NCBI GenBank assembly: GCA_035358315.1
Contig: DAOPPB010000001.1
Span: 1-59,688, forward strand
Reading direction: 5' to 3'
Length of the DNA: 59,688 bases
Origin: a bacterium
GTDB taxonomy: Bacteria > Patescibacteriota > WWE3 > UBA101185 > UBA10185
Of the stretch, positions 35,580 through 40,783 are shown piece after piece. The notes beneath the pieces were generated by a model. That model was not told where the DNA came from. It made no database searches and saw nothing but the letters and a program-made list of their open reading frames with translations. How positions within the stretch are numbered: position 1 is the stretch's first letter; the number at the start of each line of letters is the position of its first letter. The position numbers were made by a program, and so were the translations under genes.

Positions 35580-35729
35580 TTTCTCCCCTCAATGGAGCTA
35601 CACATTACCCATTAAGCTCTATGCAGGGTTTAGTTTGGCTTAACATTTGAATAAAATGTTATCTCCTTACCGATTGTTCGGTAATAAAAAACAAAGTTAA
35701 AAATATAATTTGGTTTTTTACCACAAAAC

Positions 35730-35803
35730 AAAAAAAGATGTTGCGGAGAGGCTCACATAGTTGCATTGAAATTTTCAATGTTAATATATGTGTGAGCCTC
35801 TCC
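35730..35803 (-). terminator. Strong rho-independent terminator of the 316-aa gene
   Basis: Perfect 13-bp stem GGAGAGGCTCACA (35745-35757) / TGTGAGCCTCTCC (35791-35803). On the minus strand it is followed by a T-run (the complement of aaaaaaa at 35730-35736). Confidence 0.8.
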
Positions 35804-35817
35804 TTTGATTGCTTCTC

Positions 35818-36768
35818 TTACTCTCTCAGCTGCAGGTTTGCAGCTAGGATTTCGGAAATCTTTGACCTTTCCCACGCCTCAGCCATCTCAGGTGTGGTTC
35901 CCACAAACATGACCCCCTCGCCGTTATAATTAATTACCAAAACCTTAAGACCTATTAATTCGTAACCCCCTCCGTCAACCAGGTCAACCAGGGCGTACAC
36001 TCCCCCCCTATAGTTATTATTTATCAATACCTCTCCCTGATACGGGGGTAACAAAACGTCACCCTTCTTGTGTTCGGTCACGGGATTAAAACTGAAATCC
36101 ACCCCATATAGGTCATAATAGACCCATTCAGTTCTATCCCTGTTTCTCTCTAGCCACCTCAAGGCTTCTTCGGCGTCCTTTCCGAGGACGTCAGAATAAG
36201 TCCTCCACCCATCCTGGGTGGCAATGTACCACCCCCCTGGTTCCCCGAATAAAGTCCCTTCGGGGACTTGGCTGACCACCGATCCTTCTACAAGAAAACA
36301 GTTGCCGTCTGGCAACTCTAGTAACTTGTAACCACTACCCACGACAAAAATATTTGAAGCAATTGCTTCAAATATTCTTACCCTATCCAGGCGTCCCTCA
36401 GGTTTAAAAAATAAAGCCTCCTCCCAGAAGGCCCTTTCATAAACCACGTCCGGATCCCCCTTTAGGATTTCTTCGACTTTTCTGTAGAAATCCCTCTCAT
36501 CATTCCAGCTCCAAAGGCCATATTTGAAATCAAGCCCGAGGGCCTTCTTCCCAACTTCAACTACAAAATCCCCCGGGACATTGCCCCTTTGAATAAAACA
36601 CATCAGCTCAAAGCTGATTTGCTTTGCGTCTTCCATGGCCTTCGGGATCAATTTGACCCCACATCCAAGATCAAGAGCTCTATTATAGAGCTCTTTAACA
36701 ACGCTTAACTCCCCCCTCACTTTGTATTTGTAATCGATTGGAACATATGGGTATATTTTCTTTGCCAT
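35818..36768 (-). CDS. Hypothetical protein, 316 aa, GC-rich relative to the genome
   Basis: Perfect SD GGAGGTAAAA before the ATG at 36768, and a strong terminator downstream. No motif I recognise. Confidence 0.6.
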   Translation of the reverse strand: MAKKIYPYVPIDYKYKVRGELSVVKELYNRALDLGCGVKLIPKAMEDAKQISFELMCFIQRGNVPGDFVVEVGKKALGLDFKYGLWSWNDERDFYRKVEEILKGDPDVVYERAFWEEALFFKPEGRLDRVRIFEAIASNIFVVGSGYKLLELPDGNCFLVEGSVVSQVPEGTLFGEPGGWYIATQDGWRTYSDVLGKDAEEALRWLERNRDRTEWVYYDLYGVDFSFNPVTEHKKGDVLLPPYQGEVLINNNYRGGVYALVDLVDGGGYELIGLKVLVINYNGEGVMFVGTTPEMAEAWERSKISEILAANLQLRE

Positions 36769-36850
36769 TTTTACCTCCTTTACGGGGTGGCAGACCCCAT
36801 GTTTTATTTCTATTAAGCTAATTTTGCTCAATAGCTAGTACAGGCATTCT

Positions 36851-37704
36851 TTTGGTAGGCAGGATTAAATACCTGTACATAGTTATTGAACAAATAATTA
36901 CGACGATTTTTGAATTTTCATTGATATGACTTAAATTTTCAAAGTACCCTTTCCTTAACTTTTTCCTAATCTCAACCCTGATTTTTTAAAAAAATAAGAG
37001 CTGAGTTAGGAGATCATCCTACAAAAGCAAGATGATGGACTCTCCCTTTTAGGTAGTATCCATAAACCTATTTGGCAGGATACTTTTGTCAGGAGTAAAC
37101 AGATTAATATTTACCACCCTTTAAAGTTCTTGTAATATCTGAACTTTTAAATTCTTCTTAGATCTTTTAATTTAAAATCTCTAAGAGCGAATATTTAAAG
37201 CAATCAATTTTTGGGCCACTCTCTTTAGACGGTAAACCGTCGCTTGCTTTGCAAGCTAAAAGCAGATTCCCTATATTTGTTAAGATTTTAACCTAACTTC
37301 TGAACAATTATTCATTATCCAGATGAGGTCTTCCTAATCCTTCTATTGTGGGGCCTTTATAATTTGGCAGGTTTGCCCAATCAATAACCATTATTTGGCG
37401 ATGAAAGATATAGGTGACTATATTTTTTTGTGTTTAAAAAGATTCAATTTTATCTTTTAAACAGAAATCTGTCCGAGATACCGGAATAAATTAGTACTCT
37501 CCCCGTTTAAATTAAAAAGATAAATGTTATCTTGAAACATGGGAATTTTGTTCGTGTATCTCAGGCAAGTTTTTGCTTAAAAGATTTCTCCGGATAAAAA
37601 AGCCGGGACCTAATGAGAATTATATTTTTTTAATTCTCACCAAATCTCGGCTTTTTGTTTTTTAAAAGAAAATCTTCTTTGGCAGGCCTTTAAGATTTGG
37701 TAGG
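36851..37704 (+). repeat. Dispersed same-orientation repeat family, core TTTGG(C/T)AGG, 5 copies
   Basis: Cores at 36851, 37071, 37363, 37678 and 37696. Two copies extend to about 19 bp (gcctttataatttggcagg at 37353-37371 against gcctttaagatttggtagg at 37686-37704, 16 of 19 identical). Spacing is irregular. Confidence 0.55.
37595..37662. terminator. Bidirectional terminator-like nested hairpin
   Basis: Outer stem AGCCGGGA (37601-37608) / TCTCGGCT (37645-37652) with one G-U pair. Inner stem GAGAATTA (37615-37622) / TAATTCTC (37631-37638). An A-run precedes it and TTTTTGTTTTTT follows. Confidence 0.55.
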
Positions 37705-37896
37705 TTCTTTTTTGCTTCTTATTTTTATATAGTTTTTAAAGTACCCTTCTGCCTTTCTCTTTTATCTTCCTTGACCTTGAACAAACACATTATAACTTAT
37801 AGTTTTATGTTTGTCAAGTGCTTTTGATAATTAATAAATAGTATAACTAGCTATTTTTCTCCCTTTATTAGGGATAATATACTATAAGTTTTTATA

Positions 37897-37918
37897 TTTG
37901 TCAAGTATATTTGACAAA
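37897..37918. promoter_or_regulatory. Palindromic operator candidate TTTGTCAA-N6-TTGACAAA overlapping TTGACA -35-like hexamers
   Basis: Perfect 8-bp inverted repeat 46 bp upstream of the TrmB-like gene ATG. The half-site TTTGTCAAGT with the same left flank (TATAA.TT.T.ATGTTTGTCAAGT) recurs at about 37795-37820. Confidence 0.55.
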
Positions 37919-37963
37919 ATAATAATTGACATAGTATTGGTCTTTTGGTATCTTCAAGAAGAT

Positions 37964-38740
37964 ATGTATTCAAAGATTTTAAAAGAGTCGGGATTAAAAG
38001 ATAAAGAAGCAATCGTTTATGACATATTATTAGAACACGGCACATTACCCGTTTCAGAAATCATAAAAAAATCAGGATTAAAAAGAGGTATAGTTTATAA
38101 AACACTTTATGATCTTCAAGATAAAGGTTTGGCCTCTCAAAAAATAATTAAAAAGAGGTTACATTTTAGTGCCGAACACCCATACAAACTCTCGGACCTT
38201 ATTGAAGAGCAGTTAAAGGAAGCACAAAACCATCAATTAACGTTACAAACCTATCTACCACAACTAATATCTGCCTTTAAAACCGGGGATAACAAACCAG
38301 GCGTGAAAATATACGAAGGGTTAAGCGGAATCAAAGAAGTTTACAACGACACATTAAAAGAGGGTAAGGAAATTTTGGCAATATTACAAACTTCGGAAGT
38401 GGAACCAAAAATTTACGAGTGGTTAACACACGTTTACAGCAAAAAAAGAGCGGATATGGGTATTTGGGCGAAAGTTATAGCAGCAGAGGACGTTAAAACG
38501 AAGGCGTATGTGAGTAAAAACGAGGCTGAAAAACGTGAAACAAGGGTTGTTCCCAAAGATAAGTTCCCTATTGGTATTGAAGTAGATATCTACGGTAACA
38601 AAGTGGCCTTTATAAACTTCCACAAAGATGGGGATTTAGTAGGCATTATTGTTCAAAACGAGCTTATTGCCAATACAATGTGTGCCATGTTTACATTAGC
38701 ATGGGAAAAAGCTGGCGACTATGTCACCCAGCTTCAGTAG
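37964..38740 (+). CDS. TrmB-family winged-helix transcriptional regulator
   Basis: N-terminus MYSKILKESGLKDKEAIVYDILLEHGTLPVSEIIKKSGLKRGIVYKTLYDLQDKGLA matches the TrmB HTH pattern. I use the ATG at 37964 rather than the upstream non-ATG start at 37898. Confidence 0.8.
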   Translation: MYSKILKESGLKDKEAIVYDILLEHGTLPVSEIIKKSGLKRGIVYKTLYDLQDKGLASQKIIKKRLHFSAEHPYKLSDLIEEQLKEAQNHQLTLQTYLPQLISAFKTGDNKPGVKIYEGLSGIKEVYNDTLKEGKEILAILQTSEVEPKIYEWLTHVYSKKRADMGIWAKVIAAEDVKTKAYVSKNEAEKRETRVVPKDKFPIGIEVDIYGNKVAFINFHKDGDLVGIIVQNELIANTMCAMFTLAWEKAGDYVTQLQ

Positions 38741-38746
38741 AAACTC

Positions 38747-40783
38747 TTAATATCTTCTAGAAGGTCTATGCGAAATTTCAAAATAAATCGTTCCATTTTC
38801 CATTTGTGTTCTTACCTCGCCTAATCTTCCTTGCCTATAGGATTCGCGCATATCCCAAAGTGCATCAGGTTGCCCCCCTCCCATATACATTATTGGGATA
38901 CCCATTGGCAACCCCCATGCATCCACATACCTGTTGTAGTCTATACCCGGGTCAAGTAATCCTATGGAGGCTACAGCGTAACTAAATTCCTGAGGGTCAA
39001 TTTCATCTACAACAAAATCTGGGTCTTTTTCTATAATGTAGTAACTATTATTAAATAGATTACTATCTCCTATTGGTGCCTCTTCTACTTTGTTTACTTT
39101 AAACCCAAATAGCTTTGCATACGCCCTAAATTGAGAATCGGTCATAGTCATCCTGTTAAATTTGTGTTTTTCATCAGGACCATCAAAGATGTTTCGCGTT
39201 CTCCCCGGTTCTACACCTAGTGACTCCAGATGTCTGGCATACCTGGTTATTTCCTCTGCATATTGATCCCGTACTTCTGAAACTCGATCTTCCGGTATTT
39301 TCGGAATATCTATAATACCAACGCCATTGTATGTCAGTACACGTTGCATTTCATCAAAGAAATTAGCCATTTTTTCTGGAGTATTGTTATGCAAAATAGT
39401 TCTACCCAAACAGTAAAATACCTCAGGAGACAAATCATCAAAGTAATTTCCATCGGGAAAAGGCATGTGATGCCAATCTGTCACAGCAACTTTAATAGAA
39501 GGGTCTTGTTCCTTAATTTTCCTGGCGTGATGCTGTTCATACTCCAAAGCCGTAACATCGTAACCTAATTTATGTAGAGGAACTGCATGCCTGCCTGTCC
39601 CGGCACCGACATCTATAATTCTTACCTGTCGTGCGGTCTTTCCAGTTCTCTCAGCAAATGCTTGTATTTGTTCTTGCACAATTCCTAACTCTCTAGTAGT
39701 TAATTCGGGATTATTTAAGACATACTGGTGAAAATCTACTGATTTATATATTTCGGTTAAGCTAGTCATTACCTGCTGAATATCTTGACCCTGTAATGTC
39801 TTGTATAAACGTGTTAACGCCTCGTTATTTCTGCTATGACTAGCTATTGACTCAATAGTAGGAACAACACCAAAAACATTCATTTCTTGAACAGCTAATA
39901 CAAGTCTAGCGCTATCACTTAACCCTTCAGAAGTAAGTAAGTCGGTCGCAACCTCTAATTCTTCCATTGTTTCTAGTTTTTCCAATACTTTTTTTACCGC
40001 ATGATTATTGCCTTCTTCAGCAAACTCCCGAGTTGCACGAACTACAAGAGGTAATAAATGTTCTCTCTCTTTATCGTATTCTCCCTTATTCCGTTGATAA
40101 CTTGGTCCGAATTCTTCACCTAGATAAGGACTGGTCATTTTAACTCGATTGTTCGCAACCCATAAGCGATATGTTAGGTATTCGAGCAATACCTCCCTCT
40201 GTTCAAAAGATTTATCAAAAAGTAATTGCTCTATTTTGGAAATACCAGAAAAAGCCGTTGTCTCCTCACCACTAAGTCTGGCCAATAAATCTCTTTTTCC
40301 TGGGTCTAATACCATTTCCATAGTCCGATGGTAATTCATTGCTTTACTATCCCAATAATCCTCAATAAATCTGTTCTCCTGGGTTGGCTTGCGGTAGAGC
40401 CGTTCAAACTGATTGAAGGAGAACCTCCACGCAGCTAAAACATGGCCAATATCTTCTTTTGTTCCCCCTGTTCTGATTATATTCCTGTGCGATTCCCAGG
40501 CGACACCGTCAATAGGTGCAAAATTTTCTATAGGTGTATATTCTTCGGCCACTTCGGGAACTCGGCTAATAATCTCAGCAAGTTGCTCGTGAGAAGTAAT
40601 ATTGGCTTCCAAACCCCATACAAAAACCGGCGATTCCTGATATTTTTTCGGGGATCCGTTAGTTTCAGTTGGTTCAGAAACTTTTGCATCGGGAAAAAAC
40701 TGATGTACTAAATCTTTATCAGCTTCTTTGTCCGGTGTAATGCTAACCACCTCTTCTTTTAGTTCTTCCGATGTAATGGGCAT
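38747..40783 (-). CDS. Large multidomain protein with central class I SAM-dependent methyltransferase fold
   Basis: RIIDVGAGTGRHAVPLHKLGYDVTALE (motif I and post-I) and LTYNGVGIIDIP. About 370 aa N-terminal and about 170 aa C-terminal are unassigned. A TTG at 40801 is the alternative start. Confidence 0.65.
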   Translation of the reverse strand: MPITSEELKEEVVSITPDKEADKDLVHQFFPDAKVSEPTETNGSPKKYQESPVFVWGLEANITSHEQLAEIISRVPEVAEEYTPIENFAPIDGVAWESHRNIIRTGGTKEDIGHVLAAWRFSFNQFERLYRKPTQENRFIEDYWDSKAMNYHRTMEMVLDPGKRDLLARLSGEETTAFSGISKIEQLLFDKSFEQREVLLEYLTYRLWVANNRVKMTSPYLGEEFGPSYQRNKGEYDKEREHLLPLVVRATREFAEEGNNHAVKKVLEKLETMEELEVATDLLTSEGLSDSARLVLAVQEMNVFGVVPTIESIASHSRNNEALTRLYKTLQGQDIQQVMTSLTEIYKSVDFHQYVLNNPELTTRELGIVQEQIQAFAERTGKTARQVRIIDVGAGTGRHAVPLHKLGYDVTALEYEQHHARKIKEQDPSIKVAVTDWHHMPFPDGNYFDDLSPEVFYCLGRTILHNNTPEKMANFFDEMQRVLTYNGVGIIDIPKIPEDRVSEVRDQYAEEITRYARHLESLGVEPGRTRNIFDGPDEKHKFNRMTMTDSQFRAYAKLFGFKVNKVEEAPIGDSNLFNNSYYIIEKDPDFVVDEIDPQEFSYAVASIGLLDPGIDYNRYVDAWGLPMGIPIMYMGGGQPDALWDMRESYRQGRLGEVRTQMENGTIYFEISHRPSRRY

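Follow-up and report, generated by a model that had tools for sequence, protein, structure and literature searches.

The gap of 1194 nucleotides (nt) at positions 36770-37963 of a contig from a WWE3 bacterium (Patescibacteria) probably encodes a large, modular, structured non-coding RNA. This RNA would be read from the minus strand, would act in trans as a scaffold or decoy, and would be gated by the TrmB-like regulator encoded next to it. The source genome has 645 kb in 29 contigs and is 92.5% complete; its contig 1, the whole stretch of 59,688 nt that was analysed, is hereafter called the window. The gap separates a minus-strand gene encoding 316 amino acids (aa) from the divergent TrmB-like gene, and its GC content is 30.5%, against ~38% nearby. 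A preliminary description of the sequence had reported a stretch free of open reading frames (ORFs) at 36832-37963. The lack of ORFs was confirmed, as the longest ORFs within these bounds are one of 30 aa on the plus strand and, overlapping the start of trmB, an antisense shadow of 64 aa. The bounds themselves had to be extended to 36770-37963 because the 316-aa gene most likely starts at the ATG at 36769, judging from its GGAGGT Shine-Dalgarno, and not at the TTG at 36831. The longest stop-free run in the gap has 53 codons, or 54 when TGA or TAG is read as sense.

The stretch is better conserved than the genes around it. It is ~76% identical over 0.85-1.05 kb in two genomes of the same genus, G008 and G004, and the alignments contain invariant blocks of 20-30 nt. 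The neighbouring TrmB-like proteins are 55% (G008) and 28% (G004) identical to that of the window, and the remaining flanks in G004 have no alignment with the window at the DNA level, the other flank being made of tRNA genes. Hence, the non-coding stretch outlasts its protein-coding neighbours, which indicates that it is under selection of its own. Insertions and deletions (indels) of 1 and 2 nt occur inside highly conserved blocks, and this rules out coding. The idea that the gap is a decayed gene fared accordingly: the indels are not multiples of three, the frames are closed under every stop reassignment tried, with no stop-free run beyond the 53-54 codons given above, and, short of a blastx against a protein database, no signal at the protein level appeared. 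A recognisable copy is also present in G095, which belongs to a different genus with higher GC, and has extra self-contained GC hairpins at several points. Across the higher-GC relatives, these hairpin insertions fall at the same places.

We searched for further members of the family in 134 genomes of the WWE3 class. A degenerate pattern of the best-conserved block identified 10 real members, and the reversed control pattern none. A covariance model of the same block, R1, raised the total to 15 genomes, from three GTDB families. A variant lacking the core domain M2 is found in G017 and, in part, in G044, so that relatives are present in 15-17 of the 134 genomes. All members directly adjoin a TrmB-like gene, and homologues of TrmB were found in 29 of the 134 genomes, including every one that bears the RNA. 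The length of the members varies from ~400 nt (G067) to ~1300 nt (G025), by the presence or absence of whole modules. When the pattern GGGCCACTCT-N-CAGATTCCC was searched across all GTDB genomes, there were 3 true matches among ~34 chance matches. A scan of metagenomes added only near-duplicates of G095, G067, and G004. A scan of viral contigs gave no match, and thus a link to phages was not found in that collection.

Read 5' to 3' on the RNA strand, the element is a succession of a leader with the M9' hairpin, M8', M7', M6'-M3' (including M4'), M2', M1', and M0' (coordinates in Table 1). We compared each helix with 500 shuffles and with a slid partner, and counted the compensatory cells. Three long helices show compensatory pairs beyond these controls at the homologous loci, the generic criterion for a structured non-coding RNA. 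The core domain M2' has 14 compensatory cells versus 2.7±1.6 when shuffled, and is 26-46% paired when slid. The corresponding values are 15 versus 5.3±1.7 and 40-65% for M8', and 19 versus 7.8±2.4 and 28-53% for P7, the helix that closes M7'. In all three cases, none of the 500 shuffles reached the observed number. This agrees with the long structured non-coding RNA proposed among other explanations in the preliminary description, which is supported both by a conservation exceeding that of the neighbouring protein and by compensatory changes in several helices.

The modules differ in how they are conserved. M2' is the most conserved core. It is a long hairpin in which H1', a CAU/AUG step, and H4' are capped by the terminal hairpin H3', whose CCUACC loop is kept on stems of 12 different sequences; in the window, the R1 model matches at 37029-37119. 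M8' is a 22-bp stem followed by U6-7 on the minus strand in 10 out of 10 aligned members, which fits what is expected of an intrinsic terminator. M7' is optional (11 out of 16 aligned element sequences, 10 out of 15 genomes). In M4', the outer pairs of a conserved clamp alternate between GGG/CCC and GAG/CUC (6 versus 6 sequences), and the stem within it changes from member to member (CUCA/UGAG, CCUAU/AUAGG, UCUGC/GCAGA, GUAC/GUAC, and others). In module M1, the MAFFT alignment of the whole element was of too low quality for RNAalifold.

The RNA is probably encoded on the minus strand, divergently from trmB, according to G·U counts, folding energies, and promoters. On this strand, M2' has 44 G·U versus 2 A·C cells and M8' has ~40 versus 3; if the plus strand were the RNA, these G·U pairs would become mismatches. 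RNAalifold gives lower energies for the minus than for the plus strand, both for M2 (-15.0 versus -3.0) and for the trio of the genus (-143 versus -117), and in 14 out of 16 sequences the folding energies summed over windows favour the minus strand. The two best promoter-like sites of the region, P1 (12/12) and P2 (11/12), are both on the minus strand. An alternative plus-strand fold of the core domain (hpC/hpD) was dropped after the promoter scan and the G·U counts. The plus-strand RNA assumed in the preliminary description is thus not what the evidence favours: it points to a minus-strand RNA that would start near 37782 and run leftwards.

P1 is one of only five perfect sigma-70 consensus sites with a 17-nt spacer in the 645-kb genome, and an equivalent site (10-12/12) is found at the same place in 15 out of 15 genomes. 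P2 is a duplicate of the P1 box located 87 nt upstream, within a direct repeat (37803-37830 and 37890-37917), and the conserved 35-nt box therefore reads as a duplicated minus-strand promoter. Downstream of P1, the best minus-strand sites score 9/12, and none reaches 10/12 in the relatives. Two palindromes, O1 and O2, overlap the -35 boxes of P1 and P2, respectively, O2 also abutting the candidate promoter of trmB, and both are kept in all members. They are likely TrmB sites.

The neighbouring protein has the layout of TrmB regulators, i.e., a winged helix, a long helix, and a C-terminal alpha/beta domain. Its AlphaFold2 model (predicted local distance difference test score of 83) has full-length Foldseek matches to TrmBL2 (5bpd, E = 2e-16) and TrmB (3qph, E = 1.5e-10). 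On the basis of its Pfam match and this model, we class it in the TrmB family, with a winged helix, a dimerisation helix, and a C-terminal domain, the last resembling a PLD-like fold without the HKD motif. The protein does not reach the NCBIfam equivalog cut-offs, and it is thus not an orthologue of the archaeal sugar sensors. Divergent regulator/target pairs with operators in the shared intergenic region are a classic bacterial arrangement. The locus is like them in that the palindromes overlap the -35 boxes of divergent promoters, and its simplest reading is a pair of this type in which the regulator would bind and repress, with the RNA as the target. The modelled winged-helix, coiled-coil, and C-terminal domain fold matches that of TrmB/TrmBL2 of Thermococcales, from which the system differs because a non-coding RNA takes the place of a sugar transporter or metabolic operon as the divergent target, and because the host is a bacterium.

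The dispersed repeat described initially sits in loops of this RNA. The five copies of TTTGGYAGG are where they had been reported, all on the plus strand, and the extended pair corresponds to 37352-37373 and 37685-37706 (86% identity over 22 nt). They are the only copies in the 59.7-kb window (1.3 expected), and the 645-kb genome as a whole has 12 on the same strand, these five included. In the RNA, the motif CCU(A/G)CC is located in hairpin loops, often followed by AAA. The 15 RNAs have 83 copies of CCURCC, with 3-9 copies each (~0.1 expected each), and the complement is found 3 times. Self-assembly by kissing of the repeated loops is thus unlikely. A purine motif, GRRAGAG, is found between domains (33 times versus 1). 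Other details of the preliminary description were also found in the sequence, namely the 11-mer AAAGTACCCTT at 36941 and 37738 and the two small hairpins at 37228-37257.

These elements can be put together in the following scheme. The RNA would be transcribed from P1 and P2, back-to-back with the promoter of the trmB-like gene, and a dimer of the TrmB-like protein would most likely sit on the TTTGTCAA-N6-TTGACAAA palindromes, gating synthesis of the RNA and probably also its own. Transcription would proceed leftwards through the leader, the terminator-like 22-bp hairpin, and the chain of hairpin domains, to end near 36812. Synthesis of the distal 650 nt may depend on the internal hairpin, which would then work as an attenuator; this hairpin is missing from the minimal natural variant. 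The product would be a rigid modular scaffold of hairpins presenting many copies of single-stranded CCU(A/G)CC, and would act in trans as a multivalent scaffold or decoy: a single partner, be it a protein or an RNA with GGYAGG, would be bound in several copies. Many tRNA D-loops in the source genome read UUGGYAG, to which the CCURCC loops are complementary, and in one member (G004) the RNA is followed by three tRNA genes, observations that we record only as a lead. It is a long shot that the CCURCC(AAA) loops capture several UUGGYAG(G/A) RNAs, holding or chaperoning tRNAs or their precursors, or several copies of an unknown protein, under a TrmB switch. If true, it would be the first RNA of the large ornate type for which a transcriptional regulator is identified and a class of ligand predicted.

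Several observations weigh against a single minus-strand transcript gated by TrmB. Some TrmB homologues have no adjacent RNA, and a search with the R1 model upstream of the homologues of ten additional genomes did not recover the core domain. The covariation is drawn from 10-15 related sequences, partly in MAFFT or model-fitted alignments, with statistics that ignore kinship. M8' has the look of a strong terminator only ~120-190 nt past the start; should it work efficiently, most of the structured region would need read-through or another promoter. No terminator was seen at the 3' end, past M0', in the source genome, and without one the RNA would run into the 316-aa gene. Finally, P7 has 26 G·U versus 12 A·C cells on the plus strand and folds better there (-18.65 versus -12.1). 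The strand in question holds a CCURCC-like copy, and the sequence of P7 may be constrained for another reason.

Given the place of M8', one can tentatively consider two minus-strand units: a small RNA of ~120-280 nt, from P1/P2 to the M8' terminator, and a downstream part of 650 nt (M7'-M0') produced by regulated read-through, i.e., attenuation, or from a separate promoter. The hairpin of M8' and its U tail are conserved in all members having the module, at the equivalent position G003 and G002 carry a simpler hairpin that also has a U tail, and the leader with its CCUACC hairpin is conserved. However, the minimal member G067 lacks such a hairpin between P1 and M2', the promoter scan revealed no other strong minus-strand promoter downstream, and the A-rich 5' arm of M8' pairs with the U tail and may simply extend a structural helix. 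It is improbable that the RNA is instead on the plus strand, where its loops would show GGYAGG (as in the D-loop-like UUGGYAG) and its end would be the hairpin at 37597-37656 and the T run that follows. The initial account had likened a hairpin at 37595-37662 to a bidirectional terminator, with a transcript that might end at about 37660, and a transcript ending there would be one from the plus strand. The structure is real, a 26-nt inverted repeat at 37597-37656, but its role as a plus-strand transcript end conflicts with the evidence for the minus strand. In addition to P7, a plus-strand RNA is favoured by the slightly better fold of 37343-37643 on that strand and by the TTTTTGTTTTTT that, in this genus, follows the hairpin on the plus strand. 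Outside the genus the plus-strand U tail is weak, no member has a plus-strand promoter of at least 10/12 to the left of the element, and M2 and M8 would have to bear 44 and ~40 A·C mismatches, in line with the poor RNAalifold energy of M2 reported above.

Cis-regulation of the next minus-strand gene (here, the one encoding 316 aa) by the stretch, acting as its very long, structured 5' leader, is just as improbable as a plus-strand RNA. In nearly all members, the RNA and the gene that follows share a strand, and in G000 and G008 there is no terminator between the two. Yet, a cis-regulator normally travels with its own target gene, and the downstream proteins of the 15 members have no mutual BLASTP match at 1e-3, while in G004 the RNA is followed by tRNA genes rather than by a protein gene. 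We rejected a riboswitch or leader of a conserved gene on these grounds. The least probable reading, to which we give very little credit, is that the stretch acts as DNA, either as an array of sites for TrmB, a partition protein, or a replication initiator, or as the remains of a gene. It is AT-rich, it has a short motif repeated in a single orientation, and it adjoins the gene of a DNA-binding protein; a TrmB-binding or centromere-like array was among the explanations of the preliminary description. However, the dispersed repeat sits in the loops of covarying stems that stay paired while their sequence changes, the G·U asymmetry is a property of single strands, the insertions in the relatives are shaped as hairpins, and there is no turn of the GC skew at the gap. 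The closed frames and the 1-2-nt indels argue in the same way against a decayed gene.

We compared the stretch with known RNAs. A cmscan with all 4227 families of Rfam 15, including OLE, GOLLD, ROOL, HEARO, raiA, RNase P, tmRNA, 6S, SRP, and group I and II introns, gave nothing above chance, so that this check, suggested at the outset, did not reveal a known identity. The best matches in 36000-38800 were models of eukaryotic microRNAs and small nucleolar RNAs (13-26 bits versus gathering thresholds of 40-117, E of 0.06-9), and at the gathering threshold only tRNAs were found in the window and three homologous loci. A search of Rfam and of the literature on large structured RNAs in Patescibacteria, the Candidate Phyla Radiation (CPR), or WWE3 found nothing relevant. 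The RNA is most likely a new class of large structured RNA, from a family outside Rfam.

Large structured bacterial RNAs of unknown function, such as OLE, GOLLD, and ROOL, are rare, and recent cryo-electron microscopy has reportedly revealed unexpected architectures among them. GOLLD and ROOL often adjoin tRNA genes, and OLE has a dedicated neighbouring protein gene. The RNA described here resembles these three, as well as raiA and HEARO, by its size (0.4-1.3 kb), its many conserved covarying hairpin domains, and its narrow and patchy spread. It is like GOLLD and ROOL in having one member beside tRNA genes, and like OLE in having its own neighbouring protein gene. The discovery of GOLLD and ROOL was reported in PMC5737381 and their structures in PMC12286853. 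In contrast to these ornate RNAs, the partner gene encodes a divergent DNA-binding protein of the TrmB type and not a membrane or RNA-binding protein, self-assembly through kissing loops is not expected (the complement being found 3 times for 83 motifs), and the host is a Patescibacteria genome of 0.65 Mb, the scan of viral contigs having given no link to phages. The RNA is reminiscent of the protein-sequestering small RNAs of the CsrB/RsmZ type in that it repeats one short motif many times in hairpin loops and linkers and has purine-rich, GGA-containing GRRAGAG stretches between domains. The differences are its main motif, CCURCC and not GGA, its length, 3-4 times greater, and its long-range helices. 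We rejected a CsrA sponge because no CsrA gene was found: PF02599 was not matched in the source genome, at its 92.5% completeness, and was found in the controls (E. coli, B. subtilis, and T. maritima).

Genomes of Patescibacteria/CPR, with 0.6-1 Mb, have little room for non-functional DNA. In this one, a conserved modular RNA of ~1 kb would take up 0.15% of the genome, use one of the five perfect promoters, and have a regulator of its own, and it is on these grounds a strong candidate for a novel function of RNA. Unlike other large RNAs, it comes with an experimental handle in the divergent TrmB-like gene, which provides an operator and probably a ligand that would reveal when the RNA is needed. 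The natural variants of ~400-1300 nt define a minimal core for structural work.

Table 1. Features of the RNA locus and of its surroundings, in window coordinates.
Feature	Position	Strand	Remarks
Candidate non-coding RNA	36812-37782	-	~970 nt if one transcript from P1; 5' end placed from the promoter
5' leader	37665-37782	-	Purine-rich stretch, conserved UUAAAAACUAUAUA block, module M9'
M9' hairpin	37692-37709 (plus-strand coordinates)	-	Loop shows CCUACCAAA
Hairpin M8'	37594-37660	-	10 sequences, 22 pairs, 93.6% paired
M7' domain closed by helix P7	37461-37580	-	11 sequences, 19 pairs, 91.9% paired
M4'	37213-37271	-	Conserved GRGCCACUCU...CAGAUUCYC (plus-strand spelling) clamping a variable stem-loop
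Core domain M2'	37029-37120	-	15 sequences, 17 pairs, 97.2% paired
3' part of the RNA, M1' and M0'	36812-37028	-	Stems differ in sequence between genera (by eye, without statistics)
M1' hairpins hpB' and hpA'	36973-37049	-	
M0', two hairpins	36812-36876	-	
Five TTTGGYAGG copies (36851, 37071, 37363, 37678, 37696)	36851-37704	+	Read CCURCCAAA in the RNA
Promoter P1, TTGACA-17 nt-TATAAT	37789-37817	-	12/12, sigma-70 consensus scan
Promoter P2, TTGACA-17 nt-TATATT	37876-37904	-	11/12, duplicate of the P1 box
O1, imperfect palindrome TTTGTCAA-GTGCTT-TTGATAAT	37810-37831		Operator-like, overlaps P1 -35
O2, perfect palindrome TTTGTCAA-GTATAT-TTGACAAA	37897-37918		Overlaps P2 -35, abuts the trmB promoter
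Candidate trmB promoter, TTGACA-17 nt-TATCTT	37926-37954	+	10/12, with TG extension; consensus scan
TrmB/TrmBL2-like protein, 258 aa	37964-38740	+	ATG 37964; Pfam PF01978, 1.5e-10, above cut-off
316-aa gene	Left end 35818; ORF listed from TTG 36831	-	Likelier start ATG 36769

The window's TrmB-like protein shares 83-86% of its residues with its counterparts in G067, G017, G044, and G001, and three of these genomes belong to other genera. The proteins of G008 and G004, whose RNAs are closest to that of the window, are much less similar, as indicated above. The regulator and the RNA thus seem to have evolved along separate paths, indicative of recombination or transfer within the islet. Three close homologues of TrmB, at L116 (G001), L119 (G050), and L120 (G021), lack the RNA and abut a divergent protein-coding gene. 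A block of 59 nt that includes both small hairpins (GACGG-taaa-CCGTC and GCTTGC-ttt-GCAAGC) is 97% identical between the window (37224-37263, inside module M4) and G095 (~1500-1560 in L013). The closer relatives G008 and G004 lack it, as does L095, a 97.6%-identical variant of G095 with a 4-bp hairpin in its place. From its distribution, this looks like lateral exchange of a sub-module of the RNA.

The slot 3' of the RNA (L101-L115) is occupied by a different small gene in each genome, of 100-420 aa and without mutual similarity, or by tRNAs in G004. It behaves like a variable cargo site. In the window, the 60 nt between the ATG at 36769 and the TTG at 36831 include the last hairpin of the RNA and a GGGGT-ggcag-ACCCC hairpin. 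On the other side of the 316-aa gene, the intergenic region that separates it from an NTPase-Csx3 gene (35622-35832) is 82% identical to a stretch of G008 (L009, 5149-5362) with different flanking genes.

The other perfect TTGACA-17-TATAAT sites of the genome are only four: C3:2803, C12:12269, C19:6027, and C24:18. Those of C12 and C24 share the spacer ...AAAAAGGT and the downstream sequence, and may be a repeated promoter, possibly of a stable RNA. In most members, a direct repeat, GUACUUU(G/A)A(A/U)AA..AAUAG in RNA spelling, is found in the 5' leader and near the 3' end (37733-37748 and 36936-36951 in the window). It resembles the GTACTTGACAA half of the promoter/operator box and may be a duplication scar, a processing site, or an extra half-site for the regulator.

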